DNA of 64,000 bases from Gemmatimonadales bacterium (GTDB taxonomy: Bacteria; Gemmatimonadota; Gemmatimonadetes; Gemmatimonadales; GWC2-71-9): the NCBI GenBank assembly GCA_035251445.1, contig DATFEG010000156.1:3528-67527 (forward strand), given 5' to 3'. The position numbers and the translations under genes were made by a program. Shown here piece by piece: positions 24,331 through 42,744 of this stretch (its first letter is position 1; each line of letters opens with the position of its first letter). A model generated the notes under the pieces. It worked only from the letters and a program-made list of their open reading frames with translations, did not search any database and was not told where the DNA came from.

Positions 24331-25331
24331 ACATCACATTCTGTGTCGTAGCCAATACCGACCGTCTCGATCGATTTCTCGCCGACCAGCTCAGCATCTC
24401 CCGTACTCAAGCCGGACGTCTCATAGCCGATAAGCGCGTCACCGCACGCGGCAAGGCGCTCCGCGCGTCCGCCATCCTCGAGCGCGGTACGGAAGTCACA
24501 GTCGAGATTCCTGAGGAAGAGCCCCCACGCAGTTACACGCCGTCGCACGCCGACTTGACATTCGTCTACGAAGACGAGCACCTCGCGGTGCTGGACAAAC
24601 CGGCCGGCCTCGTGGTGCATCCGGGGCCGGGACACTGGAACGACTCGCTCGTCAATGTGTTGGTGGGGCGGGGCACGGAGCTGTCGCGCGGATCCACCGA
24701 GGGACGTCCCGGGATCGTGCATCGCCTCGACCGCGATACGTCGGGGCTGCTCGTGGTGGCGAAAAGCGATCTCGCGCATCGCCGGCTTGCGGGCGCGATC
24801 GAGCGGCGCCAGGTCAGGCGCGTCTATGCGGCCCTCGTTTGGGGACATCTGCGAAAGAGCCCGGTGGACATCGAAGCGCCGATCGCGCGCCACGCGAAGG
24901 AGCGCAAGCGCATGACGGTGGCCGAGGGCGGCCGCCATGCGGTGACGCACGCCGCGGTTGTGGCGCGCTTCGCGCACTGCGATCTGCTGCGCGTGCGGCT
25001 CGGCACGGGGCGCACTCATCAGATTCGCGTCCATCTCGCCCACGTCGGCTGCCCTATCGTGGGGGATCGCGAGTACACCTTCGGCGGCAGCCGCCGCGTT
25101 ACGCCGTCGGCTCGCGGAGAAGCGGAGCGACTGGAGTCCCTCGCGCCGCGACAACTGCTGCACGCCGCCGCGCTGTCGTTCACGCATCCGGTCACCGGCG
25201 CGCCGGTCACGCTCACGTCGGAATGGCCGGCGGATTTGCGTCCGGCGCTCGCCGCCGCAGCAGGGGACGCGAATTTACTTGCTCAGGTTAAACCGTTGCA
25301 GTATCTTGGCTTCTTCGCATCCGATGAGTGA
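24327..25331 (+). CDS. rluD: RluA/RluD-family 23S rRNA pseudouridine synthase
   Basis: It has an S4 domain and the catalytic motif HRLDRDTSGLLVVAK. The likely TTG start at 24327 overlaps the lspA stop. The start choice is uncertain. Confidence 0.83.
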   Translation: MNITFCVVANTDRLDRFLADQLSISRTQAGRLIADKRVTARGKALRASAILERGTEVTVEIPEEEPPRSYTPSHADLTFVYEDEHLAVLDKPAGLVVHPGPGHWNDSLVNVLVGRGTELSRGSTEGRPGIVHRLDRDTSGLLVVAKSDLAHRRLAGAIERRQVRRVYAALVWGHLRKSPVDIEAPIARHAKERKRMTVAEGGRHAVTHAAVVARFAHCDLLRVRLGTGRTHQIRVHLAHVGCPIVGDREYTFGGSRRVTPSARGEAERLESLAPRQLLHAAALSFTHPVTGAPVTLTSEWPADLRPALAAAAGDANLLAQVKPLQYLGFFASDE

Positions 25332-25854
25332 CCAAAACCTCGCGCCCGTTCCCACTGCGCGCTTGCTCGTGTTTCGCGTGGGAGTGCTGTCATGCGCGGC
25401 CGAGGTCGATCAAGTGCGGGAGATTCTCCCGCGCCTCCCAACGACGCGTATTCCGGGCGCGCCTCCGGTCGTCGCAGGTCTCGTAAATGTTCGCGGCACG
25501 CTGGTGACCGTGGTGGAAGGGTGGCGTGCGTTAGGGCAGGACCCTCCGACGACGCCTCCGCTTCCCGATGCCACTGCAGGGTCGACGATCATCCTCGAGC
25601 TGGAGCGTTCCAGCTCGGCGGAAGGGGCGAACGAGCGCAGCCGGAAACTCATCGGGTTTACAGTGGACGCAGTGGTGGACATGCTGGCGGTGGGCGATGC
25701 CACGCTGGAGCACCGCGAAAGCCTCCCCGGCGTCGATCCCACGCTGGTAAAGGCGGTCGGGCGCCGCCAGGTTGGGGACGACTCTGGCGGGGGGAGCAAC
25801 CTGTTCATCGTGCTGAACGTGGCAGCTCTGCTGGGTCCGGTTCTGTCTAACTAA
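25324..25854 (+). CDS. cheW: CheW-like coupling protein (copy 1)
   Basis: The ATG at 25324 overlaps the rluD stop by 8 nt. The CheW fold pattern LLVFRVGVLSCAAEVDQVREILP...VNVRGTLVTVV is present, with a Pro-rich insertion. Confidence 0.85.
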   Translation: MSDQNLAPVPTARLLVFRVGVLSCAAEVDQVREILPRLPTTRIPGAPPVVAGLVNVRGTLVTVVEGWRALGQDPPTTPPLPDATAGSTIILELERSSSAEGANERSRKLIGFTVDAVVDMLAVGDATLEHRESLPGVDPTLVKAVGRRQVGDDSGGGSNLFIVLNVAALLGPVLSN

Positions 25855-25864
25855 GGAGCGTGCC

Positions 25865-26227
25865 GTGAGCCACACGGTTCTCGTCTGTGATGACGCCATC
25901 TTCATGCGGACTATGATCACGGATATCCTCGCGCAGGCAGGCTTCGAAGTGGTCGGCGAGGCCGAAACCGGGACGCAAGCCGTGGAGAAATACCGCCAGC
26001 TGAAGCCCGACCTGGTGACGATGGACATCGTGATGCCCGGCATGGGGGGTATCGATGCGGTTCGCGAGATCGTGAAGCACGACCCCGACGCGAAGATTCT
26101 CATGTGCAGCGCGATGGGGCAGCAGGCCCTCGTCGTCGAAGCGATTCAGGCCGGCGCCAAAGACTTCGTTGTCAAGCCGTTCCAACCCTCCCGCGTGCTC
26201 GAAGCCGTCCAGCGCGTTTTGGGATAG
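25865..26227 (+). CDS. cheY: CheY-like single-domain response regulator
   Basis: The 120-aa receiver has the DD, D(57)-equivalent MDIVMP and K (VVKPF) residues. GGAGCG lies 6 nt upstream of the GTG start. Confidence 0.92.
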   Translation: MSHTVLVCDDAIFMRTMITDILAQAGFEVVGEAETGTQAVEKYRQLKPDLVTMDIVMPGMGGIDAVREIVKHDPDAKILMCSAMGQQALVVEAIQAGAKDFVVKPFQPSRVLEAVQRVLG

Positions 26228-26233
26228 CACGCA

Positions 26234-28141
26234 ATGGACCTGTCGCAGTACGCCGAGCTGTTCCTGGCTGAGAGTCGGGAGCACTTGAGCGCCTGCAATC
26301 AGCTGCTGCTCGAGTGGGAACGCCGGCCATCGTCTCCCGAGCCGGTGAGCGGGATCTTCCGCGCGGTGCACACGATGAAAGGGATGGCGGCGACCATGGG
26401 ATATGGTCGCGTTGCCGACCTCGCGCATCGCATGGAGAATCTGCTGGACCAGCTAAGGCGCGGCGGCAAGCCACCGACTGATGCTACTCTGGAACTGCTC
26501 TTCCGTGCGACCGACGCGTTGGAGAAAGCGGTCGCTCTGGCGGTGGCCGGCCGCGAGCGCGAGCTCGACATCGCGTCGCTCGTCGCAGAATTTGACCACG
26601 CTGTCTCGGCCGGCGCTTCACCCGCCGCCGCTTCATCTACCGTCGCCTCATCTACCGTCGCCTCACCTCCCGTCGCCTCATCTCCCGTCGCCTCATCTCC
26701 CGTCGCCTCACCCGCTCGCCTCATTCACGTAGCCATCCGCCCTGAAACGCCGTTAAAAGGCGGCCGCGCCATGCTCGTGCTTCGTAAGGCGCAGACCCTG
26801 GGGACGGTGCAGCGGGTTCAGCCGCCCCCCACAGCGTTCGAGTCGGACGATTTCGATGGGAATGTGGCGTTCGAGCTGCACAGCTCCGCTGCGTCCCCTG
26901 AGATCGAGGCGGCGCTGCATGCGGTCGGCGACGTGGAGCGCGTCTCGATCGGCGGTAGTGAGGGCCGAGTCGATGACGCCGCGGGCGGGCGCAGCCGGCA
27001 CATCCGCGTCGACTTACGTCGCCTGGATACGCTGATGGACCTGATCGGGGAGCTCGTGACCGAGCGCGGCCGTCTGAACGAGGTGGCGGGCCGCTTGGCT
27101 GGTCAGGATCAGGCGATCGACGATATCGCGGTCCAGATCTCGCGCCTGTCCGCCGATCTCCAGAACGAGATCATTCAGGCACGCATGACGCCGGTGTGGC
27201 AGATCTTCGACCGTTTTCCGCGGCTCGTGCGCGACGTCGCGCGCCAGCTGGACAAAGACGTCGCGTTGCGCGTGGAAGGAAAGGAGATCGAGCTTGATCG
27301 GGCCATTCTCGACGAGCTCGGTGACCCGTTGGTGCACCTGCTGCGGAATGCCGTCGATCATGGAATCGAGCCACCCGCTGAACGCAAGCGGCACAAGAAG
27401 AACCCCGAAGGCCAGATCGTGCTCGCCGCGGTCCGTGAGCGCAACAGCGTCGCGATCAGCATCTCCGATGACGGCCGCGGTATCGATCGAGCGAGCATTC
27501 TCCAAAAAGCGAAGCGCGAGGGGATCGTGTCACCGCATGTCGAGTCGCTGTCCGACGATCAGCTCCTGCGCGTGCTCGCCCGGCCGGGCTTCACGACGGC
27601 CGGCACGGTCACGGCGGTGTCGGGCCGGGGCGTGGGAATCGATGTCGTCATGACGCGGCTCCGCACGCTCGGGGGATCGATCGAGATCCGGACGGAAACA
27701 GGGAAAGGCACGACGTTCATGCTGCGGCTTCCCGTCACGCTCGCCATCGTGCGCGCGCTGATCGCGGCCGTCGGGCACGAGCGGTACGCGCTGCCCCTGA
27801 CGTACGTCGCCGAAACGGTGGAGTTCGGTACGACCGCGCGGACGACGATGGAAGGGCGGGATGCGATCGTTCTGCGGGACCGCGTGGTGCCCCTCGTGGA
27901 TCTCCGCACGCTGCTGGGAACAAACGGCGGCGCTCCCGCGCCCCCTCCGCGGCGCCCCGTTATCGTGCTCGAAATGGGTGAGCGCCGCGCGGGTATCGTC
28001 GTCGACGGAATGCTCAGCCAGCAGGAGATTGTGGTGAAGGGATTCGACGCACCGCAGGGCACGTTGCCGATATTCAGCGGCGCCACGATCCTGGGGGATG
28101 GCGTGCCGACGTTGATATTGGATGCGGCGGGGCTGGTGTGA
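26234..28141 (+). CDS. cheA: Chemotaxis histidine kinase CheA
   Basis: It has an Hpt domain (FRAVHTMKGMAATMG), a dimerisation region, an HATPase domain (N, G1, G2 boxes) and a C-terminal CheW-like domain. A repetitive Ala/Ser/Pro linker follows P1. Confidence 0.95.
   Translation: MDLSQYAELFLAESREHLSACNQLLLEWERRPSSPEPVSGIFRAVHTMKGMAATMGYGRVADLAHRMENLLDQLRRGGKPPTDATLELLFRATDALEKAVALAVAGRERELDIASLVAEFDHAVSAGASPAAASSTVASSTVASPPVASSPVASSPVASPARLIHVAIRPETPLKGGRAMLVLRKAQTLGTVQRVQPPPTAFESDDFDGNVAFELHSSAASPEIEAALHAVGDVERVSIGGSEGRVDDAAGGRSRHIRVDLRRLDTLMDLIGELVTERGRLNEVAGRLAGQDQAIDDIAVQISRLSADLQNEIIQARMTPVWQIFDRFPRLVRDVARQLDKDVALRVEGKEIELDRAILDELGDPLVHLLRNAVDHGIEPPAERKRHKKNPEGQIVLAAVRERNSVAISISDDGRGIDRASILQKAKREGIVSPHVESLSDDQLLRVLARPGFTTAGTVTAVSGRGVGIDVVMTRLRTLGGSIEIRTETGKGTTFMLRLPVTLAIVRALIAAVGHERYALPLTYVAETVEFGTTARTTMEGRDAIVLRDRVVPLVDLRTLLGTNGGAPAPPPRRPVIVLEMGERRAGIVVDGMLSQQEIVVKGFDAPQGTLPIFSGATILGDGVPTLILDAAGLV
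26633..26720 (+). repeat. 15-nt in-frame tandem repeat (about 5.8 copies) in the CheA P1 linker
   Basis: The unit tcatctaccgtcgcc and its variants encode SSTVA SSTVA SPPVA SSPVA SSPVA SP. Confidence 0.92.
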
Positions 28142-28257
28142 TGATGGTTCGTGATTCGTATTTCAACACCCTAAAGGGTGTGCTCGGCAAAGCGCTGCCC
28201 TTAAGGGCAGTGATGGCCGAGCGCACGCTTCAGCGTGTCGAAATGGGAGCGTGACAC

Positions 28258-28875
28258 GTGGAAGACGTTCGTGATCTAAAAGCACTGCAGCTCGATGCGC
28301 TCAAGGAAGTCGCCAACATCGGCGCGGGTCACGCGGCGACCGCACTGTCGCAGCTGACGCAGCGCCGCGTGATGATCTCCGTTCCCGAGATCAACATCGC
28401 GCGACTCGAAGACGTCGCTGGCGTACTCGGCGATCCTCAGGAAGTGGTGGCCGCCGTGTTGATGCACATGCTCGGCGACTTGACCGGGCGGACGCTGCTG
28501 CTCTTTCCCGAGCCCGTCGCACGGCGGCTGTGCGACATGCTTCTCAAGCGCCCACTGGGAACAACCAAGGAATTTGGCACGCTCGAGCAATCCTGTCTGA
28601 AGGAGTCCGGCAACATTCTCTCGGGTGCCTACATGAACGCGTTGTCGGAATTCATGGGCATGCTGCTCCTGCCGTCCGTGCCGAGTCTCGTTGTCGATCT
28701 TTCGGCGGCGGTCTTGACGACGACGTATTTGAATTTCGGGCACGACCGCGACGTCGTCTTTTGTGTCGAGACGGAATTCAGAATCGACAGCCGGGACGGC
28801 CTGCGCGGTCATTTCCTGCTCCTGCCCGATCTGGCGTCTCTCAAGGCTATTTTCGACGCCATCCGCTTGACTTGA
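28258..28875 (+). CDS. cheC: CheC-family CheY-P phosphatase
   Basis: It has two D/S-x3-E-x2-N-x22-P active-site motifs (DALKEVANIG...VP and SCLKESGNIL...VP). It starts with GTG, and GGGAG lies 7 nt upstream. Confidence 0.85.
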   Translation: MEDVRDLKALQLDALKEVANIGAGHAATALSQLTQRRVMISVPEINIARLEDVAGVLGDPQEVVAAVLMHMLGDLTGRTLLLFPEPVARRLCDMLLKRPLGTTKEFGTLEQSCLKESGNILSGAYMNALSEFMGMLLLPSVPSLVVDLSAAVLTTTYLNFGHDRDVVFCVETEFRIDSRDGLRGHFLLLPDLASLKAIFDAIRLT

Positions 28876-31580
28876 TCGTCTCCGAGCGCGACCTCACGGT
28901 GTTGAGGTCATTTTCCCGCCGGATCGACCCGTCGGACGCGGGCGCGCACAACAATCTCGGCGTTTTGTACTACCAGAAGGGACTCGTCCCCGAGGCCATC
29001 GAGCAGTTTACGCGCGCGCTCGAGCTCGACCCGCGCATGCAGGTGGCGCAGCGTAACCTCGAGATTGCCTATCACAACACGGGCTACTACGACCGGCGCG
29101 TCGCCGAGCTGCAGGAGCGGCTGCGCCAGGCGCCCGACGATCGCGACGCGCGCTGGGAGCTGGGCCGCACGTACGCCATCCTCGCTGCCTTCGACGAAGC
29201 GGTGGCGGAGTTCGAGGAGCTGCTCGCCCATAAGCCGAACGACGTCGCGGCGATCATTCAGCTGGGACTCGCCGAGAAAGCGCGCGGCCGGCTGGAGGTC
29301 GCGACGGAGTGGTTCAGCCGCGCGGTCGAGCAGGATCCCGCGTCGACGGTCGTCCACTTTTACCTGGGCGAGGTTTACTACAACCGCGGGCTGAACGAGC
29401 CCGCGCTCGCGGCGCTCGAGCGCGCGGTCTCGCTGAACCCCGACAACGCCAATGCGCACTATTTGATGGCGTTCGTCCTCGGCGACATGGGGCGCCACCA
29501 GGATGCACGCGCCGCGTCCAAGCGGGCGATTCAACTCAATCCACCCCTCGCCCGCGCGCAGACGAACCTGTCGCTGGAGCGCTATCGCGCCGAGCGGCAA
29601 TCGGCCGAGCACCGCCTGCGGGCGAGTCCCGCCCCGGAGGTCGCCGAAGGTCACGAGCTGGCCCACTTCAACCTCGGGCTCGCGTTCCGGCAGAAAGGCT
29701 ATTACACGGAGGCGTTGCGCGAATATCGGCTGGCCCTCGAGCGCGGCGAGGACCGCCGGCTGGTGCGTCAGGCGATGGCCGAAGTGCACCTGCTGAAACA
29801 CGACGTTGCCGACGCGCTCGAGCTGTATGAAGCGCTGATTCACGAGGTGCCGGACTCGCCGAAGCTGTGGAACGAGCGCGGCGTGGTATTGCACCAGGCG
29901 GGTCGCGCGGCGGAGGCGCTGGCCTCGTATCGGCAGGCGACCGACGTCGATCCACGCTACGCGCTGGCGTGGAACAACGTCGGTGTCGTGCTCGCGCATC
30001 AGCGCGACGCCGAAGACGCGATCCAGGCGTTTCGCAAGGCGTTGCAGCTGTCGTCCGCCTTCGCTGCCGCGCGGCTCAATCTCGCGTTATTGCTCACCCA
30101 TCTGCGCCGCTTCCAGCTCGCGCTCGAGGCCTATCGGCAAGTGCTGTCGGATCAACCGGCGTCTGCGCCCGCGTGGAACGGCGTCGGGCTCGTGCTCGTC
30201 GAGTTGAAGCGTTTTGTGGATGCGCGGAACGCATTCGTGCGCGCGGTCGAGGCGGACCCGCAGAACGCCGGTGCGCACTACAACCTCAGCTTCACACTTT
30301 CGAATCTCGGCGATTTCGACGGCGCGTTGCGTGCCACCAAGCGCGCGCTCGAGCTCGACCCCTATTACGTCTCGCAGAAGTTCGCGCTCGCCATCGACCT
30401 GCAGTACGAAACGGTCTCGATCGGGATCATCCCGGAGATCTCCGCCGACGTCGCTGCCGAGAGCCTTGCAGGCGAGTTTGCATTCGACCAGCGGCTGCTC
30501 GACAACATCTTCAAGGAGCTGGCGCCCGCGGCGGCCGCGGCCACGACCGCGCCGCAAGCGCCCGCCGGCATCGCGAAGCGGGCCGAGGACCCCCTGGCGC
30601 TCGCCCGTGACTATGTGAGCAAGGGAATGATGGATCTCGCGGTCGCCGAGACGATGCGCGCCGTGCAGCGCGGCGCCGATCGCGGCCGCGCGGCCACGCT
30701 GCTGGGCGAGATCTACGCGCGTCGCGGCTTGCACGGCGAGGCGCTGGAGCGCTACGGCGAAGCCCGCACACTCGATGCTGCCAATGCCGCCGCGGCGCTC
30801 GGGGAAGTGAAGAGCCTGCTCGCAATGCAGCGCCCCACCGAGGCGCTGCCCCTCGCCGAAGCCCTCGTGACCCGCATGCCCGATGATGTCGAGGTGCTGG
30901 TTGGTGTTGCGAAGGCGCGCGCCGCGACCGGGGACGCCGCCGGCGCGCTGACCGCGTTGCAGCGGGCCCAGACGCGCGCACCCGCGCGCGCCGATCTGCA
31001 CAAACTGCAGGGCGACATCGCGCTCAAGGTGGGCGAGCGCCAGGGCGCGCGGCAGGCGTATCGTGCCGCGCTCGATCTGGATAAGGGCTTCGTGCAGGTC
31101 TGGCTCGATCTCGGCCGGCTGCACGAGCACGACGAAGAGTGGCGGCTGGCGCAGCAGGCGTATGAAGAGGCGCTCGAGGCGTTGCCCACGTTTCACGAGG
31201 CGTCGCTCGCGCTGGCCGACCTGTTGCGCCGCACCGGCAGCGTGCGCTCCGCCGTCGTGCGGCTCGCGGACATGCTGGAGCAGGATCCGTACGATCTCGA
31301 CGCGTTGCTGCTCCTGGGCCGCGCGCTGCTGGATGACAAGCGCAACGAAGAGGCGCTCGAGGCGTTCCGGCGTGTGCTCAAATTCGACGCCGAGCACGCG
31401 GGTGCGCTTTTCTACCTGGGCGCGACGCTCGCGCGCCTGCAGCGCTACGCCGACGCCGTCGACGCCTGGGAGCGCGTGACGCGCCTCGATCCGGGGGGTC
31501 CCTTCGCGCAACGCGCGCGGATGCACGCGCGGACCGCGCTCGATCTGCAGCACATCTTCTCCACGCCGGATGCGGCCTGA
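28872..31580 (+). CDS. Large TPR-repeat protein (~900 aa)
   Basis: TPR motifs (A/G/Y/W periodicity, xxAxxxYxxALxxxP) run continuously throughout. The probable TTG at 28872 overlaps the cheC stop, with GTG at 28899 as an alternative. The upstream 114 codons of the track ORF overlap cheC and are discounted. Confidence 0.8.
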   Translation: MIVSERDLTVLRSFSRRIDPSDAGAHNNLGVLYYQKGLVPEAIEQFTRALELDPRMQVAQRNLEIAYHNTGYYDRRVAELQERLRQAPDDRDARWELGRTYAILAAFDEAVAEFEELLAHKPNDVAAIIQLGLAEKARGRLEVATEWFSRAVEQDPASTVVHFYLGEVYYNRGLNEPALAALERAVSLNPDNANAHYLMAFVLGDMGRHQDARAASKRAIQLNPPLARAQTNLSLERYRAERQSAEHRLRASPAPEVAEGHELAHFNLGLAFRQKGYYTEALREYRLALERGEDRRLVRQAMAEVHLLKHDVADALELYEALIHEVPDSPKLWNERGVVLHQAGRAAEALASYRQATDVDPRYALAWNNVGVVLAHQRDAEDAIQAFRKALQLSSAFAAARLNLALLLTHLRRFQLALEAYRQVLSDQPASAPAWNGVGLVLVELKRFVDARNAFVRAVEADPQNAGAHYNLSFTLSNLGDFDGALRATKRALELDPYYVSQKFALAIDLQYETVSIGIIPEISADVAAESLAGEFAFDQRLLDNIFKELAPAAAAATTAPQAPAGIAKRAEDPLALARDYVSKGMMDLAVAETMRAVQRGADRGRAATLLGEIYARRGLHGEALERYGEARTLDAANAAAALGEVKSLLAMQRPTEALPLAEALVTRMPDDVEVLVGVAKARAATGDAAGALTALQRAQTRAPARADLHKLQGDIALKVGERQGARQAYRAALDLDKGFVQVWLDLGRLHEHDEEWRLAQQAYEEALEALPTFHEASLALADLLRRTGSVRSAVVRLADMLEQDPYDLDALLLLGRALLDDKRNEEALEAFRRVLKFDAEHAGALFYLGATLARLQRYADAVDAWERVTRLDPGGPFAQRARMHARTALDLQHIFSTPDAA

Positions 31581-34368: not shown

Positions 34369-34370
34369 CC

Positions 34371-34973: not shown

Positions 34974-36937
34974 CCACCACGCTCAACCCCCGCTTCACGT
35001 TCGACACCTTCGTGGTGGGCGCGGCCAACCGCCTGGCGGTCACTGCCGGCCGGACGGTGGCCGAGAATCCCGGCTTCGCCTACAACCCGCTCTTCATCTA
35101 TAGTGGGTCTGGTCTCGGAAAGACGCATGTCATGATGGGGATCGGCCACGCGGCCAAGTCGCTCGCGCCGCAGCTGAACATCGAATACCTGACGTTGGAC
35201 GAATACGTCGAGGCATTTCACGCCGCCATCGCCGCGGGGCAGGGCGACGCCTTCCGGCGGCGCTTCCAAAACGTGGGCGTGCTGCTCGTCGACGACGTGC
35301 AATTCCTCACGAACCGCAAAGAGATGCAGGCCGAGCTGCTACGCCTGACCGAAGCGCTGCAGCAGGCCGGCCATCAGATTGTGTTGGCCAGCGACCGGCC
35401 GCCCGCCGAAATCGCTGACCTCGACGAACGGCTGATTTCCCGGTTCTCCGGCGGTCTGGTTGTCGACATCGGGGTCCCGGACTATGAGACGCGCGTCGCG
35501 ATTTTGCGGCGCAAAGCGGAGGGGCGGGGGATCGCGTTCCAGCCGGGTGTGCTCGAGACGATTGCGAAAATCGAGTTCCCGAATGTGCGCGAGCTGATGG
35601 GTGCGCTGAACCGGGTTGTGGCCTTCCAGGCCGTGCACGACTCGCCCGTCAACGAAGAAGCGGTGCGCAAGGTGCTCGGCGTCCCGGCCGCTGCCTCATT
35701 GGCCGCTGCCTCATCGGCCGCTGCCTCATCGGCCGCCGCCTCTCCGGCCGTCGCCTCACCCGACGAGTTCTCGCAGTTTCTCACTGACGTCACCGCCAAT
35801 GTGGGAAAGGCCGTCGAGGCCTGGCGCGCGCGCGTGGCCGAAGCGGTGATGCGTTGGCAGGGGGAAGGCTATCGTACCGGACGTCTCGAGCAGCTCCTGG
35901 ATCGAAACAAGCCGGCGGCGGTGGACGACGAGATCGACGCCTACGTACGGGATGTGGAGCGGCTCAAGGCGCTCGAGGCGGAAGTCGCGACGCTGGATCC
36001 GCGGGTCGCGGGTGACAAAGTCTTCCACGATCCGGACCGCATGGACGAAGCCGAAGCGGCCGCCGCCCGGGTGCGCGAGGGCGCGGCGCCGCCGCCTGCC
36101 CCGTCGGGTGCGTTTCCGCTCGAAAGTTTTCGCGCGGGCCCGTCCAACGAGGTCGCGCTCAGCGCGGCGCGCGATGTCATTGCGAAACCGGGCAAGAAGT
36201 ACAATCCGCTCGTCATCGTCGGCAACAGCGGGCTGGGGAAGACGCACCTCCTGAACGCAATCGGCCTGGAGCTGTCGAAGAAAAGAGGCGCGATCGTGGC
36301 GTGTCTGTCCACGCAGGCGTTTGTGGACGAGCTGATCGCGGCGATCGACGGCAACCGCGTGGATTGGTGGCGCGCACGCTATCGGCGGTGCACGGCGCTC
36401 GTGCTCGATGACATCCAGCTTCTCGCCGGCAAGCAGCGCACGCAGGAAGAGCTGTTCAATCTCTTCAACCAGTTCCTCGACGCCGAGCGCCAACTTGTGT
36501 TCTCCGCGCCCGCGCATCCCAAGACCCTGGAAGGGCTGGAGGAGCGCATTGTGTCCCGGCTCGAGGGCGGGCTCGTCGCGGAGCTGGGTGAGCCCGACAA
36601 GGACGTGCGCCGCAGCGCGCTGGAGGGCCTGCTCCGGCAGCAACGCGTGATGACGGATTCCGCGTTGCTGGATTATCTCGCCGACCGCCCGGTGGATTCT
36701 GTCCGCAGCCTGACGGCACTCGTGCAGCGGGTCCTCGAGGCGGCGGCCGCGCAAGACGCGCCGGTCACGGCGGCTCTCGCGCGGGACGTGCTCGAAGGCT
36801 CAGTTGCGGCGCGCCGCTCGCTCGGTGCCCGGACCAGCGGCCTCGTGGTCTCGAGCGCGGGCGGCGTGCGCAGCCGCGAAAAGATGGTGTGGGATTGGCC
36901 GACGGCCGCCGACCGCGTCATTGAGGACATCCGCTGA
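34970..36937 (+). CDS. Tandem DnaA-like AAA+ ATPase (two Bac_DnaA-type modules, no DNA-binding domain IV)
   Basis: The ATG at 34970 overlaps the mglA stop as ATGA. Module 1 has NPRFTFDTFVVGAANRLA, Walker A GSGLGKTH, Walker B LLVDDVQFL, LASDRPP, SRFSGGLVVDI and NVRELMGALNRV. Module 2 has ESFRAGPSNEVA, GNSGLGKTH, LVLDDIQLL, SAPAHP, SRLEGGLVAEL and SVRSLTALVQRV. A repeat linker and a coiled-coil-like segment separate them. The protein ends without a DnaA_C helix-turn-helix. Confidence 0.8.
   Translation: MTTTLNPRFTFDTFVVGAANRLAVTAGRTVAENPGFAYNPLFIYSGSGLGKTHVMMGIGHAAKSLAPQLNIEYLTLDEYVEAFHAAIAAGQGDAFRRRFQNVGVLLVDDVQFLTNRKEMQAELLRLTEALQQAGHQIVLASDRPPAEIADLDERLISRFSGGLVVDIGVPDYETRVAILRRKAEGRGIAFQPGVLETIAKIEFPNVRELMGALNRVVAFQAVHDSPVNEEAVRKVLGVPAAASLAAASSAAASSAAASPAVASPDEFSQFLTDVTANVGKAVEAWRARVAEAVMRWQGEGYRTGRLEQLLDRNKPAAVDDEIDAYVRDVERLKALEAEVATLDPRVAGDKVFHDPDRMDEAEAAAARVREGAAPPPAPSGAFPLESFRAGPSNEVALSAARDVIAKPGKKYNPLVIVGNSGLGKTHLLNAIGLELSKKRGAIVACLSTQAFVDELIAAIDGNRVDWWRARYRRCTALVLDDIQLLAGKQRTQEELFNLFNQFLDAERQLVFSAPAHPKTLEGLEERIVSRLEGGLVAELGEPDKDVRRSALEGLLRQQRVMTDSALLDYLADRPVDSVRSLTALVQRVLEAAAAQDAPVTAALARDVLEGSVAARRSLGARTSGLVVSSAGGVRSREKMVWDWPTAADRVIEDIR
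35686..35760 (+). repeat. 15-nt in-frame tandem repeat (5 copies) in the linker of the DnaA-like protein
   Basis: The unit ggccgctgcctcatc and its variants encode AAASL AAASS AAASS AAASP AVASP. Its 3-prime end cgtcgcctcaccc is identical to the end of the CheA repeat. Confidence 0.92.
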
Positions 36938-38553
36938 TGGCGATCAAGGGCTCGCTGAAGGAAGCCTCGCTGCCGGACGTGCTCCAGCTGCTCGCGCTCG
37001 GGCAGAAAACCGGCTGCCTCTCGATCGCCGACCGCTCGAACTTCGGATACATCTACTTTGACCGGGGACGCATTGCCTACGCCTCCATCGTGAATCGCCG
37101 CGATCGGCTCGGCGACATTCTCGTCAAGCACGAGAAGATTTCGCAGGAGCAGCTGGATGCCGCGATCCACCGCCAGTCCAGGGAGCGCGACAGGAAGCTG
37201 GGCGAGATCCTCGTGACGCAAAGCGTGCTCACGCAACAGGAGCTCGAGCGCTACATGCGCATGCAGATCGAGGAATCGGTGTTCTACCTGTTCACGTGGA
37301 CACAAGGGACCTTCAATTTCGAGGCGGACGTTCGTCCGGAGCAGCAGGATTTCCTCGTCTCCATCAATCCCGAGTCGCTCCTGCTCGAGGGCGCGCGCCG
37401 CGTCGACGAATGGGGACTGATCGAGAAAAAGATTCCTTCCTTCGATCTCATCTTCCTCGTCGATCGGGACCGCCTCGCGATCAGTGATTCCACACTCACG
37501 GACGTGCAGGAGCGCCTGCTGGCGCTGCTGGACGGCTCGCGTGACGTGAATCAGGTCATCGAGGATTCCGGCCTGGGGGAGTTCGAAGTCGGCAAGGCGT
37601 TGTACGGCCTCGTCACCGCGGGCTTCCTGCATCGCGCGGGCCGAACGGCGGGAGCGGAAGACGCGAAGATGACGGACGCGCGCGTCGAAGAGCACCGTAA
37701 TCTCGGCATCGCCTTCTACAAGACGGGCATGTTGGACGAGGCCGCCCGGGAATTCCGCCGGGTGGCGGAGTTGCGGCCCGTCGACGGCAACGCGCACTTC
37801 TTCATCGGTCTCGTCGCGCTGAAGCAGGCGCGTTGGCGCGAGGCGATGGAGGCGCTGCGACTCGCGGCGGAGAAAGGCGGCTCGCGGCCCGCGGTGCTGC
37901 ACAACCTGGGACTCGCCTACGAGCAACTCGGTCGGCTCGCGGAAGCGGAGGCCGCCTACGCGGAGGCGGCGACGCGCGCCAAGACCGATCCGCGCGTGTA
38001 TGTGGGATGGGGTGTCGTGGCACTGAAGCGCGGTGACTACGCCGGTGCCGCGGGGCGACTCGACCGCGCGCGTGAGCTCTACGTGCAGCACGTGCCGCCG
38101 ATATGGTACTGGGCGCGCGTGCTGGCCGCCGCCGGCGCGGGCGATTTCGAGACGGCCGAGCAGATGGCGGGACAGGCGGTGGAGGCGTACCCGCAGAACG
38201 GCGTGCTACGCAACAACCTCGCCGTGCTGCTCGAGCTCGCGGGCGACTTGCCGCAGGCGGAGAATTTGGCGCGCGCCGCGCTCCGCGACGAGCCGTCACT
38301 GCCTCAGCTGTCCAAAAACCTCGGCGACCTCGCCTATCGCGCCTCCCGCTACGACGAGGCGTGGACTCTCTACCAGCGCGCGATCGAGCTCGCGCCCGAG
38401 TTGGGGGACGACATCTACTTCAAGCTCGGGAACATTGCGTACAAGCAAAACGACCGGCAGCAGGCGAGCGACCTCTGGCGCCGGGCACTCGAGCTGAATC
38501 CCAAGCACGAGCTCGTGAAAGCGAATCTCGACACGTTGAGCACGTTGTCGTGA
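36937..38553 (+). CDS. DUF4388 (PATAN-like) domain protein with C-terminal TPRs (second paralogue)
   Basis: Its N-terminus MAIKGSLKEASLPDVLQLLALGQKTGCLSI parallels MAIEGPLRELGIHDVFQLLDLSRKTGALRV in the gene at 31580. It has the same middle region and a longer TPR tail. Its start overlaps the preceding stop by 1 nt. Confidence 0.75.
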   Translation: MAIKGSLKEASLPDVLQLLALGQKTGCLSIADRSNFGYIYFDRGRIAYASIVNRRDRLGDILVKHEKISQEQLDAAIHRQSRERDRKLGEILVTQSVLTQQELERYMRMQIEESVFYLFTWTQGTFNFEADVRPEQQDFLVSINPESLLLEGARRVDEWGLIEKKIPSFDLIFLVDRDRLAISDSTLTDVQERLLALLDGSRDVNQVIEDSGLGEFEVGKALYGLVTAGFLHRAGRTAGAEDAKMTDARVEEHRNLGIAFYKTGMLDEAAREFRRVAELRPVDGNAHFFIGLVALKQARWREAMEALRLAAEKGGSRPAVLHNLGLAYEQLGRLAEAEAAYAEAATRAKTDPRVYVGWGVVALKRGDYAGAAGRLDRARELYVQHVPPIWYWARVLAAAGAGDFETAEQMAGQAVEAYPQNGVLRNNLAVLLELAGDLPQAENLARAALRDEPSLPQLSKNLGDLAYRASRYDEAWTLYQRAIELAPELGDDIYFKLGNIAYKQNDRQQASDLWRRALELNPKHELVKANLDTLSTLS

Positions 38554-39413
38554 GCCTGGAGGGCACGCTCGGGAAAGACGAACAGGGCTTCCACCAGCTC
38601 ACCGAGAAGGTCTCACGCGAGCGGGGCATCAGCTGCGGATCATACAAAGAAAAGTGTTTACGCCGCCGCATCGCGGTCCGCATGCGCGCGCGCGGCGTCC
38701 ACAGCTACGCCGATTACGCCCGGTTGCTCGATCGGGACGCGGGCGAATATCAAGAGCTCCTCGATGCGCTCACCATCAACGTCACGAAGTTCTTTCGCAA
38801 CGCCGAAACATGGGATGCGTTGCGTCCCTACCTTGTAGAGTTGTGGGCTGCCCGGCGGAGGGAAGGCGAGCCGCTCCGGATCTGGTCGGCGGGATGTGCC
38901 TCGGGTGAAGAGCCATACACGATCGCCGTGCTGCTCGCCGAAATCTTGGGCGAGGATCTCCGGCGGTCGTTCATCGATGCGACCGATATCGACCGGCTGA
39001 GCCTCGAGCGCACCCGCCAGGCGCAATACCCCGAGACCGCCTTCTCGGAGATGCCGGTGCACCTGAAGCGCCGCTACTTTGTGGACGGACGTCCGGTCGC
39101 GCGGATCGGCGAGGTCGTGCGGGTGCTCCACCACGATCTGACGCGGGAGCCGCCGCCGCGTTCCGTCTACGATCTCATCGTGTGTCGCAATGTCGCCATC
39201 TACTTCGAGCGCGACGCACAGGAGCGGCTGTATGGGACGTTCGCCACAGCCTTGCCGCCAGGCGGCGCGCTGCTGCTCGGGAAGGTCGAGACGCTGTTCG
39301 GCCCGGCGCGCGAGCGGCTCACACTCCTCGACCCGCGCGAGCGGATCTATGTGAAGCCGATCGGCAAAGCCTCGGCCCACCTCTCTGGAACCGAGAGGAT
39401 GGGTGAGGCCTGA
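38550..39413 (+). CDS. cheR: Chemotaxis protein methyltransferase CheR
   Basis: The GTG at 38550 overlaps the preceding stop as GTGA. It has the CheR N-terminal helical domain and the SAM site IWSAGCASGEEPYT. Confidence 0.9.
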   Translation: MSLEGTLGKDEQGFHQLTEKVSRERGISCGSYKEKCLRRRIAVRMRARGVHSYADYARLLDRDAGEYQELLDALTINVTKFFRNAETWDALRPYLVELWAARRREGEPLRIWSAGCASGEEPYTIAVLLAEILGEDLRRSFIDATDIDRLSLERTRQAQYPETAFSEMPVHLKRRYFVDGRPVARIGEVVRVLHHDLTREPPPRSVYDLIVCRNVAIYFERDAQERLYGTFATALPPGGALLLGKVETLFGPARERLTLLDPRERIYVKPIGKASAHLSGTERMGEA

Positions 39414-39421
39414 AGGAAATA

Positions 39422-39892
39422 GTGGTCACCGTGGCTGACTGGGCAGCCGAGCGCGGGGATGGAGTCCTGGTGACCCTGGGGCTCGGCTCATGTGTCGCCA
39501 TCATGCTGCATGATCCGGAGAGCGGGGCCGGTGCGCTGGCTCACGTGCTCCTTCCCTCGACCAGCCTGGCACGCGACACCAGCAATCGCGCGAAGTTTCC
39601 GGAAACCGCCGTGCCGCTGATGATTGAACGCCTCACAGCACTTGGCGCCGATCCGCGACGCCTGTGCGCAAAGCTCGCCGGCGGCGCCAGCATGTTCAGC
39701 CAGCTCGTTACGCCCGGCACGATCCAGATGGGTGAGCGCAACGTGCTCGCGGCGCGCACCGCGCTGCGCCGCGCTGCCATTCCCATCGTTCGCGAAGCGG
39801 TCGGTGGGGAGCTCGGCCGCAGCATCCGCTTTCATGTGAAGGACGGCCGCGTCGAGATTCGGTCGGTGGGCGCCGATGTCCAGGTGATCTGA
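39422..39892 (+). CDS. cheD: Chemoreceptor glutamine deamidase CheD
   Basis: The 156-aa ORF has the [13 protein letters not shown] catalytic Cys region and HVLLP. Confidence 0.88.
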
Positions 39893-39897
39893 CCGCC

Positions 39898-40998
39898 ATG
39901 CCATCCGAGCCGCGCCCGGCCGCCACCCGGCCCACGGTGCTCGTCGCCGACGACAGCGCCCTGATGCGGCGGGTGCTCGTCGATGTGCTCGGCGACGAGT
40001 TTCAGGTGGTCGCGACCGCACGCGACGGCATCGACGCGATCCGCAAGACCCACCGGTACAATCCCGACGTCGTCACGCTCGACCTCGAGATGCCGCAGCT
40101 CGACGGCCTCGGCGCCATCGGCTACATCATGTCGGAATCCCCGCGCCCCATCGTCGTCGTGAGCGCACACGCGGGGCCGGGCACAGCGACGGCCATCCGC
40201 GCGCTCGAGCTGGGTGCGGTCGAAATCGTCGCCAAGCCCCCACCGCCGGCTCACGCCCTCGCGCACTCGCGCGCCGCGCTCGCCACCTTGGGGCCTCAGC
40301 TTGTCACCGCGATTCATCGCGCGCTCGCAGCCGACGTTTCGCACGTCAAAGTGCTGGCTCGTCCACCGGCGCCCGTCGTGCATCCACCGGAGGTGGCATT
40401 GCGGGGCCGGGCGGGTCTGGTCGTTGGTGTTGCGGCGTCCACCGGTGGACCGCGCGCGCTCGCTGAGGTGATCCCGCGTCTGCCGACCGGCCGCGGCGCC
40501 GCGGTGCTCATTGTGCAGCACATGCCGCCCAAGTTCACGCGCAGTCTCGCCGAGCGACTCGATTCGATCAGCGCGTTGCGCGTTGTGGAGGCGGACGACG
40601 GAGCGCCGATCGTCGCCGACACGGCATACGTGGCGCCGGGCGATTATCATATGCGAGTGCGAACCGCTCACGATGGCCCGGTCATCGCGCTCGATCAGTC
40701 GACTCCCATCTGGGGCGTTCGTCCGGCCGCCGATCTCCTGTTCCACTCCATCGCGCAAGTGTACGGCGCGCGTGGCGTCGGTGTCGTGTTGACGGGGATG
40801 GGCCGGGACGGCGCGGAGGGGTTGCGCGCCATGCACGACGCAGGGGGCGCTGGTCTAGCCCAGGACCGCGAAACCGCCGTCACGCACGGGATGCCCGCGG
40901 CCGCGGTGCAGGCGGGTGGGGTCGATGCGGTGCTGCCGTTGGAGAAGATCGCGGACCGGGTCTGGGCGGAGTTGATGAAGAGGAATCCGCAGCGATGA
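39898..40998 (+). CDS. cheB: Chemotaxis response regulator protein-glutamate methylesterase CheB
   Basis: It has a receiver domain ([12 protein letters not shown]...TLDLEMP) and a methylesterase domain (ASTGGP, HMP, GMGRDGA). Confidence 0.93.
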
Positions 40999-41414
40999 AG
41001 GGCTATCTGCTGGTTCGCTCCGAGGGGAAAACCTACGGCCTTCCCGTCGCGCGCGTGCTCGAAGTCGGCGATGCGACGGAAGTGCTCGCCGTGCCGCGCA
41101 AGCTTGCCGCGGTGCGCGGGCTCACGCCACTGCGCGGCCGCCTGGTTCCGCTCATTCATCTCGGGGCTTTCCTGACGGGACAGGCAGCGCCTGACACAGG
41201 GCCCGCGGGCGTTAGAACGATCGTGCTCGTCGAGATCAAGGGCCGACACGTCGCGCTCGAGGTCGATGATGTCGACGCGGTGGTTCGAGAACAGCCGCTC
41301 CCCGTTCCCCACGGGCAGACGCTGCCGTGGGCGAGCGCAGTGGCGCCTCAAGGCCAGAGCGGCGGGCTCGTGCCGATTCTCGATCTCGACGCCTTGGGAG
41401 ATCGCATAGGATGA
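40995..41414 (+). CDS. cheW: CheW-like coupling protein (copy 2)
   Basis: The 139-aa ORF has the CheW-like pattern [21 protein letters not shown]...[12 protein letters not shown]. It overlaps cheB as ATGA. Confidence 0.78.
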
Positions 41415-41881
41415 ATCTTGCGGGCGCCGCCGGCGATGAAGTCCAGCTCGTGACCTTCAAGGTGGGCGGTCAGGATTTCGCGTTCAACATCTTTCAGGTC
41501 GAGCGCATCCTGCGCTACGAAGCGCCCGCGCCCTTGCCGAAGGCGCCCGAGTTTCTCGAGGGGGTGGTGCGCTACGGGGGCGGCGCGGTGCCGCTCATCG
41601 ATCTGCGCAAGCGACTGGGGACGACAGCCCCGCTGCGCGAAGACACTCGCACCATCATTCTCGAGTTCGAGGGAGGCAAGATCGGCATCATCGTCGATGC
41701 GGTGACTGAAGTACTGCAGGTGGCGGCGCAGTCCGTTACGCCACCACCGGGAATCGTGAAAGGCCTGGCCGCGGAATACATCGCCGGTCTCGTCGTGCAA
41801 AATGGGCGCACGATTATCGTGTTGAATACGAACAAGCTGCTGACTTCGCAGGAGAAACTGGCATTGCAGGGAGCGACGTGA
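41411..41881 (+). CDS. cheW: CheW-like coupling protein (copy 3)
   Basis: The ATG at 41411 overlaps the preceding stop as ATGA. It has the pattern LVTFKVGGQDFAFNIFQVERILRYE...VVRYGGGAVPLIDLRKRLG. Confidence 0.85.
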   Translation: MNLAGAAGDEVQLVTFKVGGQDFAFNIFQVERILRYEAPAPLPKAPEFLEGVVRYGGGAVPLIDLRKRLGTTAPLREDTRTIILEFEGGKIGIIVDAVTEVLQVAAQSVTPPPGIVKGLAAEYIAGLVVQNGRTIIVLNTNKLLTSQEKLALQGAT

Positions 41882-42744
41882 TGGTGGATTCGCCGGTTGC
41901 GGCACTGCGGCGGGAATACGACGCGATCGCGCGTCAGCTCGCGGGCGCGCCGGGCGCGGCCGAGCAGGAAGCGGCCAAGCGTGAGATCATCGCGTATTTC
42001 AAGAAGGTCGATGGCATGCTGGCGGAGCTCTCGCATCTGAAAGAGGACATCCGCCAACTCGTCGATCGCTACAAGCAACTCGCCGCCGACACCAAGCAGG
42101 CCGCGGCGCCGCAGTTCACTGGCGCGCGTCCGGCGGTGCACGCCGATCACATCGGCGCTTCCACGTTCATCGAAAAAGGATGGAGCCTGATCTCGTTGGG
42201 CGATCACGCCGGCGCGATTCAGGCGCTCACGAAGGCGCTGCAGCTGTCCCCGGGCGAGACGCAGGCGGAGAACCTGCTCGGATGGGCGCAGATGCTGAAC
42301 GAGTTATACGACGACGCGCTCCAGACGTTTTCCAAGGTTCTGATGAAGGAGCCCGCGAACTCGCTCGCACGAATCAATGTGGGCTACATCTGTCTGAAGA
42401 AAAAGATTTTTGGTGAAGCTATCGAGCACCTCTCGAAGGCCATCCGGCTCGATAACGACAAGAAAGCAACGCTGTACGCGCACTTCTATCTCGGGCTCGT
42501 GTATCTGCAGCGCGAGATGTACGAAGATGCGCAAGTGTTCTTCGAGAAGACTCTGAAGCTCGGTCCAAACCTGATCGAGGCGTACTACGAGCTGGGGCGA
42601 GCGCACTGGTTCACAGGCGATCAGCGCATGGCCAAGTCCATCTGGGAAGACGGCTTCAAGGCGAACAAGTTCAATCCGTGGGGCAAGAAGTGTCAGGAGA
42701 TGCTCGAGCTTGTCGCCAGGGGCGAGGAGCCGCCGCGAAACTAG
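41878..42744 (+). CDS. TPR-repeat protein (last gene of the che operon)
   Basis: The 288-aa ORF has an N-terminal coiled coil and C-terminal TPRs. Its start overlaps cheW3 by 4 nt. Confidence 0.7.
   Translation: MMVDSPVAALRREYDAIARQLAGAPGAAEQEAAKREIIAYFKKVDGMLAELSHLKEDIRQLVDRYKQLAADTKQAAAPQFTGARPAVHADHIGASTFIEKGWSLISLGDHAGAIQALTKALQLSPGETQAENLLGWAQMLNELYDDALQTFSKVLMKEPANSLARINVGYICLKKKIFGEAIEHLSKAIRLDNDKKATLYAHFYLGLVYLQREMYEDAQVFFEKTLKLGPNLIEAYYELGRAHWFTGDQRMAKSIWEDGFKANKFNPWGKKCQEMLELVARGEEPPRN

Follow-up and report, generated by a model that had tools for sequence, protein, structure and literature searches.

A conserved che gene block of Gemmatimonadota that encloses an MglA/MglB module and a tandem DnaA-type ATPase

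Can a chemosensory pathway and the polarity GTPase that it might control be encoded as a single device? The question is raised by a gene cluster at positions 25324-42744 of a 64,000-nucleotide stretch of DNA from a Gemmatimonadota contig (hereafter the window, meaning the whole stretch that was analysed). An initial annotation of this DNA had proposed that a complete che core is split here by an MglA/MglB module, forming a hard-wired switch from chemosensing to the GTPase. The cluster comprises 18 genes (g1 to g18), all transcribed in one direction on the forward (+) strand, as are all features described below. Their content and order are as originally listed, and the gene models match those called independently on a contig of 99.9% identity, except that the start of g18 is shifted by one codon and that cheA differs by 15 nt in repeat copies.

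The cluster opens with cheW (g1, 25324-25854, 176 aa; Pfam CheW, 69.8 bits), cheY (g2, 25865-26227, 120 aa; a single receiver domain, Response_reg 109.9 bits), cheA (g3, 26234-28141, 635 aa; Hpt, P2, dimerisation, HATPase and CheW domains) and cheC (g4, 28258-28875, 205 aa; CheY-P phosphatase family, two repeats, Pfam CheC 74.2 bits). It closes with cheR (g13, 38550-39413; CheR 153 bits plus CheR_N), cheD (g14, 39422-39892; CheD 99.1 bits), cheB (g15, 39898-40998; receiver plus methylesterase), two further cheW genes (g16, 40995-41414; g17, 41411-41881) and a gene for a 288-aa TPR protein (g18, 41878-42744), the last four assigned by domain search. All the Che calls of the initial annotation were thereby confirmed, including the three CheW proteins. 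The core is nevertheless incomplete in cis, contrary to what had been claimed, since domain searches detected no receptor (MCP) gene in the cluster or beside it. CheA, in which the domain search found no receiver, has E. coli CheA and Thermotoga maritima CheA as its best solved relatives. Across the phylum the identity of CheY is about 90%; to the CheY of T. maritima it is 68%, and the alpha4-beta5-alpha5 regions of these two are almost identical.

Between cheC and cheR, the first gene encodes a large TPR protein (g5, 28872-31580, 902 aa) that matches many TPR families. Two PATAN proteins were correctly recognised from the outset, with DUF4388 scores of 112 and 134 bits for a cut-off of 25 bits. 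The first (g6, 31580-32719, 379 aa) combines PATAN with an MshEN-type insert and TPRs, carries the motif RLGEILVSLGVITQREVERQVRFQ at residue 90 and scores 38 bits against NF053729, exactly the cut-off of that model. The second (g12, 36937-38553, 538 aa) combines PATAN with tandem MshEN-type motifs and TPRs, and reaches 51.3 bits for the same cut-off; its solved sequence relatives are only MshE-N, PilF and PilB. Both thus contain MshEN-type c-di-GMP motifs, and their inserts resemble MshEN, the module with which pilus ATPases bind c-di-GMP, in sequence (5HTL, E = 1.8e-4) and in the structural model.

The PATAN genes enclose the GTPase module, whose Roadblock, MglB-like and MglA assignments all held. 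The first protein (g7, 32712-33551, 279 aa) consists of TPRs and a C-terminal Roadblock-like domain that was missed by Pfam and weakly matched by an MglB model (residues 198-272); profile-profile alignment with g8 using hhalign supports it (probability 93%, E = 3.6e-7). A single-domain Roadblock/LC7 protein follows (g8, 33548-33895, 115 aa; Robl_LC7 35.4 bits), with the Robl_LC7 protein 7f8m as its best solved relative, and then an MglB-like Roadblock protein that is extended at its C terminus (g9, 33892-34368, 158 aa; Robl_LC7 33.6 bits), whose best eight solved matches are MglB chains without exception (best E = 1.2e-7). The group-1 MglA GTPase (g10, 34371-34973, 200 aa) matches solved MglA with E = 3.5e-73 and is 57% identical to Myxococcus xanthus MglA. 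Its catalytic motifs are intact (GPGRSGKTT, R53, TVPGQ and NKQD); the P-loop, TVPGQ and NKQD are retained in all 11 orthologues checked, and the TDRT (R53) motif was not found in two of them (L007 and L086).

The remaining product (g11, 34970-36937, 655 aa) is an AAA+ ATPase with two DnaA-domain-III modules in one chain (Bac_DnaA x2, 335 bits), as the initial annotation had described. The modules are joined by a helical linker (266-371) and followed by a disordered segment (612-635) and a conserved C-terminal helix; the family alignment shows a conserved C-terminal motif, REKxVWxWP...DRLIEE. DnaA domain III is the top Foldseek match (TM 0.95) of the AlphaFold2 model (pLDDT 86.5). In the Foldseek alignment the N-terminal module is 45% identical to domain III of Bacillus subtilis DnaA, and it retains the Walker A/B, sensor and arginine-finger positions. 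Domain and motif searches found no DNA-binding domain IV, domain I or clamp-binding motif. Both halves thus belong with the DnaA/Hda/IstB initiator clade, from which the protein differs by its two modules per chain, its family-specific linker and the missing domains I and IV and clamp motif. Public records annotate the family only as 'DnaA/Hda family protein'.

How tightly are these genes bound together? A recount of the 17 junctions reproduced the earlier tally exactly (11 overlaps of 1-8 nt, five gaps of 2-10 nt and one spacer of 116 nt), and the ATGA, GTGA and TGATG sites quoted as examples lie at the coordinates given. On their own, however, the junctions do not show that the genes form a single translationally coupled unit: the end of the upstream gene rluD and the start of g1 share 8 nt, and overlaps of this kind also connect the housekeeping genes further upstream, so that junction structure does not set the 5' limit of the unit. 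The cheA-cheC spacer (28142-28257) holds a long hairpin without a T-run (dG -66 kcal/mol, z = -5.9) and is lineage-specific, cheA and cheC abutting or overlapping in relatives. Terminator-like sites showed no excess (10 found vs 10.8 expected). The genes may be co-transcribed.

Comparative genomics gives the order more weight. The interleaved arrangement is conserved in related Gemmatimonadota: 91 of 91 loci, among them that of the complete chromosome CP070666.1, are collinear with the window and occupy the same place in the chromosome, and 16 of them hold all 18 genes. Collinearity persists where the ATPase is only 34-43% identical, with 34-36% as the lowest values, and the junctions are still tight in a lineage at 34%. 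MglA, MglB and both extra Roadblock genes lie between the two PATAN genes in every one of these loci, and g18 is retained even in variants that lost cheB or cheW. Median identities are highest for the candidate interface proteins, namely MglA (93.5%), CheC (91%), MglB and the g12 PATAN-TPR protein (90% each) and CheY (89%); CheA (77%) and CheR (71%) are lower. Among metagenome contigs the cluster is frequent and strongly conserved, and its closest named relatives are MAGs with SMAG isolate names, which we take to refer to a soil MAG catalogue.

The split of the che genes by the MglA/MglB module stands for Gemmatimonadota, without being the deepest pattern. Two distant loci (L082 and L089, 'Cloacimonetes 4572_55'-like; CheY 70% identical) carry cheW-cheY-cheA-cheC-TPR-PATAN-tandem ATPase and lack mglA and mglB, and a reduced locus (L085) keeps only Roadblock, ATPase and PATAN/TPR genes, with no che genes at the site. 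Next to the tandem ATPase there is a PATAN gene in the version of Gemmatimonadales, in L085 and in L082/L089, and the g5 orthologue adjoins the ATPase in L082, L088 and L089. What is more deeply conserved is thus a core of the tandem ATPase and PATAN, usually accompanied by the large TPR protein and CheA/W/Y/C. MglA and MglB consequently seem to have joined a Che/PATAN/ATPase system that is older than their arrival.

Several known systems share parts of this design. Like the Myxococcus Frz-MglA system, the cluster pairs a Che-type phosphorelay with MglA, sharing its catalytic motifs, and a Roadblock-type GAP; the extra Roadblock proteins recall MglC. In Myxococcus, however, che and mgl genes are unlinked rather than interleaved, and Frz employs a CheA-receiver fusion (FrzE), a dual-receiver protein (FrzZ) and a cytoplasmic receptor (FrzCD), whereas the cluster has a receiver-less CheA, a T. 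maritima-type CheY, no RomR, RomX or FrzZ, and additional PATAN-TPR proteins and tandem ATPase. The cyanobacterial Tax/Pix systems (PatA-type PATAN-REC) also encode PATAN within a che-like cluster, as an output domain; in Synechocystis, PilB1 and PilC, proteins of the pilus motor, are binding partners of PATAN domains. Here, by contrast, PATAN is fused to TPRs instead of a receiver, the single-domain CheY has a gene of its own, and the cluster also encodes MglA/MglB and the ATPase. The set of Che components and the CheA domain order match the Thermotoga/Bacillus-type flagellar pathway, from which the cluster departs by eight non-Che genes between cheC and cheR and by a lineage mostly without flagella; no receptor, CheV or flagellar genes were found near it. 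Streptomyces conservons likewise encode a kinase-based sensor, a Roadblock protein and an MglA-family GTPase (the likely output) together; their kinase is a membrane histidine kinase and their MglA belongs to group 2, where the cluster has a full Che pathway and a group-1 MglA. PATAN genes are often neighbours of MglA/MglB genes, and this association is already on record in a 2014 supplementary table, which lists "PATAN>MglA>-PATAN" in Gemmatimonas aurantiaca. Beyond that entry, our literature search found no paper describing the cluster.

The union of che genes, MglA with its regulators and the tandem ATPase in one conserved block of this probably soil-dwelling bacterium suggests a built-in link between sensing and polarity which, if true, would have no earlier description in the literature that we found. 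We consider it most likely, at about an even chance, that the block works as a polarity switch for type IV pili that is built on MglA, driven by the Che relay and gated by c-di-GMP. A conventional relay (CheA, three CheW, CheY, the phosphatase CheC, and CheD/CheR/CheB for adaptation, with receptors encoded elsewhere) would lie alongside its probable output device (MglA, MglB, two more Roadblock domains, TPR scaffolds, two PATAN-TPR proteins and the ATPase). Receptor signals would set CheA activity; CheY-P, reset by CheC, would act on the Roadblock/MglB complex or the PATAN-TPR scaffold and alter the nucleotide state or location of MglA; MglA-GTP and the PATAN-TPR proteins would then direct a polar machine, most likely the type IV pilus motor, to one pole; and the switch may be gated or timed by c-di-GMP, via the PATAN inserts, and by the tandem ATPase through its ATP state. 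Every protein-protein step, the co-transcription of the genes and the pilus output are what we infer. Type IV pili are favoured because soil Gemmatimonadota mostly lack flagella: among the more than 400 Gemmatimonadota genomes of one survey, flagellar genes appeared in only one or two soil genomes, some freshwater and wastewater members being flagellated, and type IV pilus genes occurred in genomes of all environments except marine (PMC10581226). The binding of PATAN to pilus motor proteins, the frequent proximity of PATAN and MglA/MglB genes and the MshEN-like inserts also speak for a pilus output. Against this explanation we count that domain searches found no RomR, RomX, FrzZ-type regulator or pilus gene in the cluster. 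The absent cis receptor gene and the tight junctions between unrelated housekeeping genes are counted likewise.

A credible if rather unlikely alternative is ordinary flagellar chemotaxis, in which CheY-P would bind the motor switch and the embedded MglA, Roadblock, TPR, PATAN and ATPase genes, instead of being its output, would mark the pole for the chemoreceptor array or the flagellum or position either of them. ParC/ParP or PpfA ATPases, encoded inside che operons elsewhere, are comparable, and such nucleotide-dependent positioning ATPases are an established precedent in its favour. The likeness of CheY to the flagellar-type T. maritima protein, with CheC, CheD and a P2-bearing CheA that are typical of flagellar pathways, could point to a flagellar output, and flagellated freshwater and wastewater relatives exist. 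Yet flagellar genes appeared in only one or two soil genomes while the cluster is common and its closest named relatives carry SMAG names, L085 keeps Roadblock, ATPase and PATAN-TPR genes with no che genes at the site, and experiments tie PATAN to pilus motors, not arrays.

It is improbable that the unit consists of Che, TPR, PATAN and the tandem ATPase, with CheY-P acting on the PATAN/ATPase pair, and that MglA, MglB and the Roadblock proteins merely ride along in this lineage, sharing its promoter but not directly coupled to the phosphorelay. L082 and L089 argue for this, since in versions without MglA/MglB the Che proteins may signal to PATAN and the ATPase instead, as does the tight packing of unrelated genes in the same genome. 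Against it, MglA, MglB and both extra Roadblock genes hold one internal position in 91 of 91 loci, few genes of the block are as well conserved as those for MglA and MglB, and L085 retains a Roadblock gene beside the ATPase. The proposed switch from chemosensing to the GTPase remains the best-supported reading, given the 91-locus order and the intact MglA motifs, and is weakened by the missing MglA/MglB of the distant versions. That the ATPase is an Hda- or DnaA-like replication or cell-cycle regulator, the block coupling replication or division to polarity, is very improbable: its DnaA-like N-terminal module with intact ATPase positions and the location between cell-division gene blocks (divIVA-ileS-lspA-rluD on one side, mraW-ftsI-mur genes on the other) fit this idea, yet domains I and IV and the clamp motif are missing, the constant neighbour is PATAN, mostly with che, rather than replication genes, and the division genes on both sides belong to a conserved backbone, which L085 has around it too.

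Downstream, one gene adds to the original list of 18. A possible nineteenth member (42690-43613), it encodes a Peptidase_MA_2-like membrane protein that carries a HELAH motif and, at either end, hydrophobic segments. The gene shares 55 nt with g18 and is followed by tRNA-Val; it always trails the cluster, the reduced locus L085 included.

The cluster comprises 18 genes on the forward strand (25324-42744) and joins systems of familiar type to a single component family that is uncharacterised. Its order, as already read in the initial annotation, is cheW, cheY, cheA, cheC, a large TPR protein, a first PATAN-TPR protein, a TPR-Roadblock protein, a Roadblock protein, an MglB-like protein, mglA, a tandem DnaA-type ATPase, a second PATAN-TPR protein, cheR, cheD, cheB, two cheW and a TPR protein. 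The gene models agree with those called independently on ENA ERZ27257135, a metagenome contig of 99.9% identity.

Pfam and NCBIfam searches bore out the assignments of CheW (three copies), CheY, CheC, CheR, CheD and CheB, and CheA displays Hpt, P2, dimerisation, HATPase and CheW domains without a receiver domain. The che core had been described as complete, which holds for the CheA/W/Y/R/B/C/D set, i.e. the component set of a flagellar-type Che pathway, and not for a receptor, the same searches having revealed no chemoreceptor gene in the cluster or its flanks. In the scheme of Wuichet and Zhulin (2010), a flagellar-type pathway with CheC/CheD falls into class F1. The cluster does not encode a Frz pathway: Myxococcus FrzE is a CheA-receiver fusion whereas the CheA of the cluster lacks the receiver, and neither the dual-receiver FrzZ nor the receptor FrzCD was found in the cluster or flanks. 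Within cheA, the linker between P1 and P2 (26667-26696) contains one tandem copy more of the 15-nt unit CTCCCGTCGCCTCAT than the sister contig L001, so that the two CheA proteins differ by five residues in length.

Group-1 MglA proteins are characterized by a P-loop, an intrinsic arginine finger (R53), the replacement of Asp by Thr in the G3 motif (TxxGQ with Q82) and an NKxD motif (Wuichet and Sogaard-Andersen 2014). The mglA product harbors all of these (GPGRSGKTT, TDR53T, T78VPGQ82 and NKQD), which upholds its assignment, and the motifs are kept in the orthologues checked, with the exception of TDRT, not found in two of 11. It obtained weak scores on the Pfam Arf/Ras models and matched the solved structures of MglA from Myxococcus xanthus (E = 3.5e-73, 57% identity) and Thermus thermophilus (E = 3.2e-69). 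The preceding gene, whose stop codon lies 2 nt ahead of mglA, encodes a Robl_LC7 protein (33.6 bits against a cut-off of 23) whose eight top-scoring solved matches are MglB chains without exception (E = 1.2e-7 for the first), in line with its earlier MglB-like label; it is predicted to be the MglB partner of this MglA, with a putative GAP role. Two Roadblock/LC7 proteins of the cluster were retrieved by Pfam as expected, while the C-terminal Roadblock proposed for the TPR-Roadblock protein gave no Pfam hit and was recovered by hhalign against the family of the adjacent Roadblock protein (probability 93%, E = 3.6e-7, 96 columns), along with a weak match to the MglB model (E = 1.8e-4).

Both PATAN-TPR proteins (31580-32719 and 36937-38553) scored well beyond the PF14332 cut-off of 25 bits, with 112 and 134 bits, respectively, and thus retain their initial assignment. 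PatA-type regulators are PATAN-receiver fusions, whereas these two proteins lack a Response_reg match and carry TPR repeats instead. A helical insert of the PATAN domain (residues about 54-115) contains the tandem 24-residue MshEN motif RLGxx(L/V/I)(L/V/I)xxG(L/V/I)(L/V/I)xxxxLxxxLxxQ, in two copies in the second protein (51.3 bits in NCBIfam NF053729, where 38 is the cut-off) and as one strict plus one relaxed copy in the first (38 bits, equal to the cut-off), and most orthologues checked retain it. At the sequence level, solved matches to the N-terminal region of the second protein are limited to MshE-N (5HTL, in complex with c-di-GMP), which ranks best, T. thermophilus PilF and PilB; a low-confidence model built from two sequences (pLDDT 66) gave the same top matches, 5HTL superposing with an rmsd of 1.3 Å over 56 columns at a weak E-value of 0.11. 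[quoted passage not shown]

The initial annotation had recognized a double DnaA-like AAA+ protein, and the corresponding product (655 aa) indeed holds two Bac_DnaA ATPase domains (335 bits). It belongs to a family of about 650 residues whose full-length members reach down to 32% identity, the value also separating its own two halves. The N-terminal half is 45% identical to domain III of Bacillus subtilis DnaA (predicted model, TM 0.95). Across the family, each half preserves Walker A and B, and conservation also covers the sensor-II arginine of the first half and the arginine-finger position of the second. The likeness to the replication initiator is restricted to this AAA+ domain III, present in two copies: the chain starts straight with domain III, and neither the DNA-binding domain IV nor domain I was detected (no Bac_DnaA_C or DnaA_N match at E <= 0.01). 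Features specific to the family are a helical linker (DEFxxFLSxV...WR..ILRWxxEGxRTxRLE), a disordered segment and, at the C-terminus, a conserved motif (REKxVWxWP..DRLIEE), a type of short tail that might dock on a TPR partner. Public databases annotate its members as ‘DnaA/Hda family protein’ or ‘chromosomal replication initiator’, and the latter label, carried by thousands of environmental sequences, is probably wrong. Named relatives are Gemmatimonadales or Gemmatimonadota MAGs, and a search for cultured carriers through sequence-cluster names returned only MAG or metagenome names. The cluster provides a first functional context for this widespread but unstudied family.

To our knowledge, the chemosensory control of a small GTPase polarity switch is known in detail from Myxococcus only, where the two systems are genetically unlinked and the steps connecting the chemosensory pathway to the GTPase have been hard to find. 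The present cluster gathers candidate connectors in one place, namely the Roadblock proteins, the PATAN-TPR proteins and the DnaA-derived ATPase. In the mechanism that we favor, CheY-P from the Che phosphorelay would act on a Roadblock/MglB-PATAN-TPR assembly, this assembly would set the state or location of MglA, which would in turn determine the polarity of type IV pili, with c-di-GMP and the ATPase as possible additional gates on the MglA switch. We consider this scheme, whose coupling steps we infer, to have roughly even chances of being correct. The preference is due to three observations: in Synechocystis, PATAN serves as the output domain, with the pilus motor proteins PilB1 and PilC as its binding partners; mglA/mglB are known neighbors of PATAN genes, found near some group-1 mglA (Wuichet and Sogaard-Andersen 2014); and soil Gemmatimonadota are rarely flagellated. 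Among more than 400 Gemmatimonadota genomes surveyed, flagellar genes were encountered in just one or two soil genomes, and type IV pilus genes were reported from every environment but marine (PMC10581226). The same scarcity weighs against the main rival, an ordinary flagellar chemotaxis pathway in which a positioning system is embedded, which otherwise fits the 68% identity between the CheY of the cluster and that of Thermotoga maritima as well as the CheC/CheD set. If the pilus-polarity mechanism is true, the co-encoding of both systems in another phylum and with another Che type would represent an independent case, the coupling having arisen more than once; within Myxococcales, Frz was proposed to be a late addition to MglA/MglB/RomR (Keilberg et al. 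2012).

Full-text searches yielded no description of the cluster. A supplementary table of Wuichet and Sogaard-Andersen (2014) lists ‘PATAN>MglA>-PATAN>’ at GAU_1409 of Gemmatimonas aurantiaca, an entry that mentions neither che genes nor the ATPase. A full-text literature search with G. aurantiaca locus tags found nothing. The 2014 entry may open the hypothesis to tests in a species available in culture.

The neighborhood survey covered 91 loci: species-representative genomes contributed nine, a divergent lineage two and metagenomes 80. Scanning genomes with the ATPase alignment recovered nine true loci among matches dominated by ordinary DnaA genes, because the patterns used for searching coincided with the Walker A region; scanning metagenomes with an alignment of the family-specific linker avoided DnaA and brought close relatives only (77-89% identical), i.e. 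depth and not breadth. Collinearity with the window extends to all 91 loci, 16 of which have the complete set of 18 genes, and real variants drop adaptation genes only (cheB and two cheW in one case, cheD and two cheW in another). Median identities are highest for MglA (93.5%), CheC (91%), MglB (90%), the second PATAN-TPR protein (90%) and CheY (89%), and lower for CheA (77%) and CheR (71%). Synteny persists on the complete chromosome CP070666.1 (ATPase 43% identical) and in a lineage whose ATPase is 34% identical, where junctions are still tight and the flanks match those of the window, with rluD upstream and the peptidase, the TPR protein and mraW downstream. Collinearity and common flanks over divergent lineages indicate that the block is old and vertically inherited. 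A mobile island was rejected, since the base composition resembles that of the surroundings and the flanking genes are constant over divergent lineages. An anti-phage defence role was likewise discarded, PADLOC giving only trivial P-loop and TPR matches.

More distant versions lack the GTPase. In a lower-GC lineage that includes ‘Candidatus Cloacimonetes bacterium 4572_55’, a homologue of the ATPase (30% identical) is the last gene of a block ordered cheW-cheY (70% identical)-cheA-AAA_22 ATPase-long cheW-cheC-TPR (826 aa)-PATAN-ATPase, from which mglA, mglB, cheR, cheB and cheD are absent. In its two representatives, two additional genes lie between cheA and cheC (L082 4035-5923; L089 3743-5493), one for an AAA_22/STAND-like ATPase of 272 aa and the other for a long CheW extended at its N-terminus by about 170 residues. 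A reduced locus on a high-GC Gemmatimonadota contig (L085) holds just Roadblock-ATPase-PATAN/TPR between rluD and the peptidase, and in a marine Gemmatimonadota MAG (L088) the ATPase is accompanied by the large TPR protein only. PATAN and the large TPR protein thus emerge as constant partners of the ATPase, usually together with CheA/W/Y/C. The main Gemmatimonadota version is characterized by MglA/MglB and the additional Roadblock proteins. The che core split by an MglA/MglB module, as initially described, is thus present in the 91 collinear loci and not in the distant versions; likewise, the hard-wired chemosensory-to-GTPase switch proposed from it is partly supported, in a picture refined by the absence of MglA/MglB from the distant versions. 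Tentatively, and with rather low confidence, the ATPase family might be a signalling ATPase of a new type for which the replication initiator was recruited, forming with PATAN the conserved output module of a Che pathway in Gemmatimonadota as well as in related lineages of the FCB group; the module would have captured MglA/MglB in Gemmatimonadota, and a three-nucleotide switch (ATP for the ATPase, GTP for MglA, c-di-GMP for the MshEN-type inserts of PATAN) would set polarity from receptor input. In the marine MAG, two bactofilin genes (L088 3765-4667) lie about 3-5 kb upstream of the large-TPR/ATPase pair; in Myxococcus, bactofilins and SofG, an MglA-like GTPase, act jointly in placing the pilus motors.

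The junction count of the initial annotation proved exact: start and stop codons overlap by 1-8 nt at 11 junctions, gaps of 2-10 nt occur at five more and a 116-nt spacer separates cheA from cheC (16 of 17 junctions thus <=10 nt), and the ATGA, GTGA and TGATG sites were found where it had placed them. Terminator-like and promoter-like sites in the cluster are not in excess over shuffled sequence. Together with the short junctions, the lack of a terminator excess bears indirectly on a putative single operon. Upstream, rluD overlaps the first cheW by 8 nt and closes a housekeeping chain (ylmE-divIVA-PNP-ileS-dksA-like-lspA-rluD, 18250-25331) joined throughout by start/stop overlaps of the same kind. 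Tight packing is therefore the style of this genome and sets no limits to a functional unit, so that of the ‘one translationally coupled unit’ first deduced from the junctions, the packing stands and the boundary does not. The spacer (28142-28257) folds into a long imperfect hairpin without a T-run (dG -66 kcal/mol, z = -5.9); it is missing from all relatives compared except the near-identical sister contig, and no further copy exists within the window. A known RNA element was rejected, as an Rfam search gave no match and relatives lack the spacer, and a 37-aa ORF called there on the sister contig was taken to be spurious, given that the spacer is confined to this lineage. The spacer may represent a palindromic element that was inserted, or a site for mRNA processing or stability.

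Downstream, a gene for a Peptidase_MA_2-like membrane protein (42690-43613), which carries a HELAH motif and has hydrophobic segments at either end, overlaps the last TPR gene of the cluster. This gene always follows the cluster, even in the reduced locus devoid of che and mglA, and its product may be part of the system or of a conserved backbone. Next come tRNA-Val(TAC) (43831-43904), a 603-aa TPR protein (43939-45750) that separates the cluster from the dcw genes, tRNA-Asp(GTC) (45796-45870) and mraW-ftsI-murE-murF-mraY-murD (45891-54473). The cluster sits between two cell-division-related blocks, the upstream one resembling B. subtilis in gene order. Further upstream, a gene with a DAC domain (c-di-AMP synthase; 15153-15953) adjoins folP, followed by a housekeeping run with tilS, ftsH and a macAB-like exporter, and nearly all genes of the 64-kb window lie on the forward strand.
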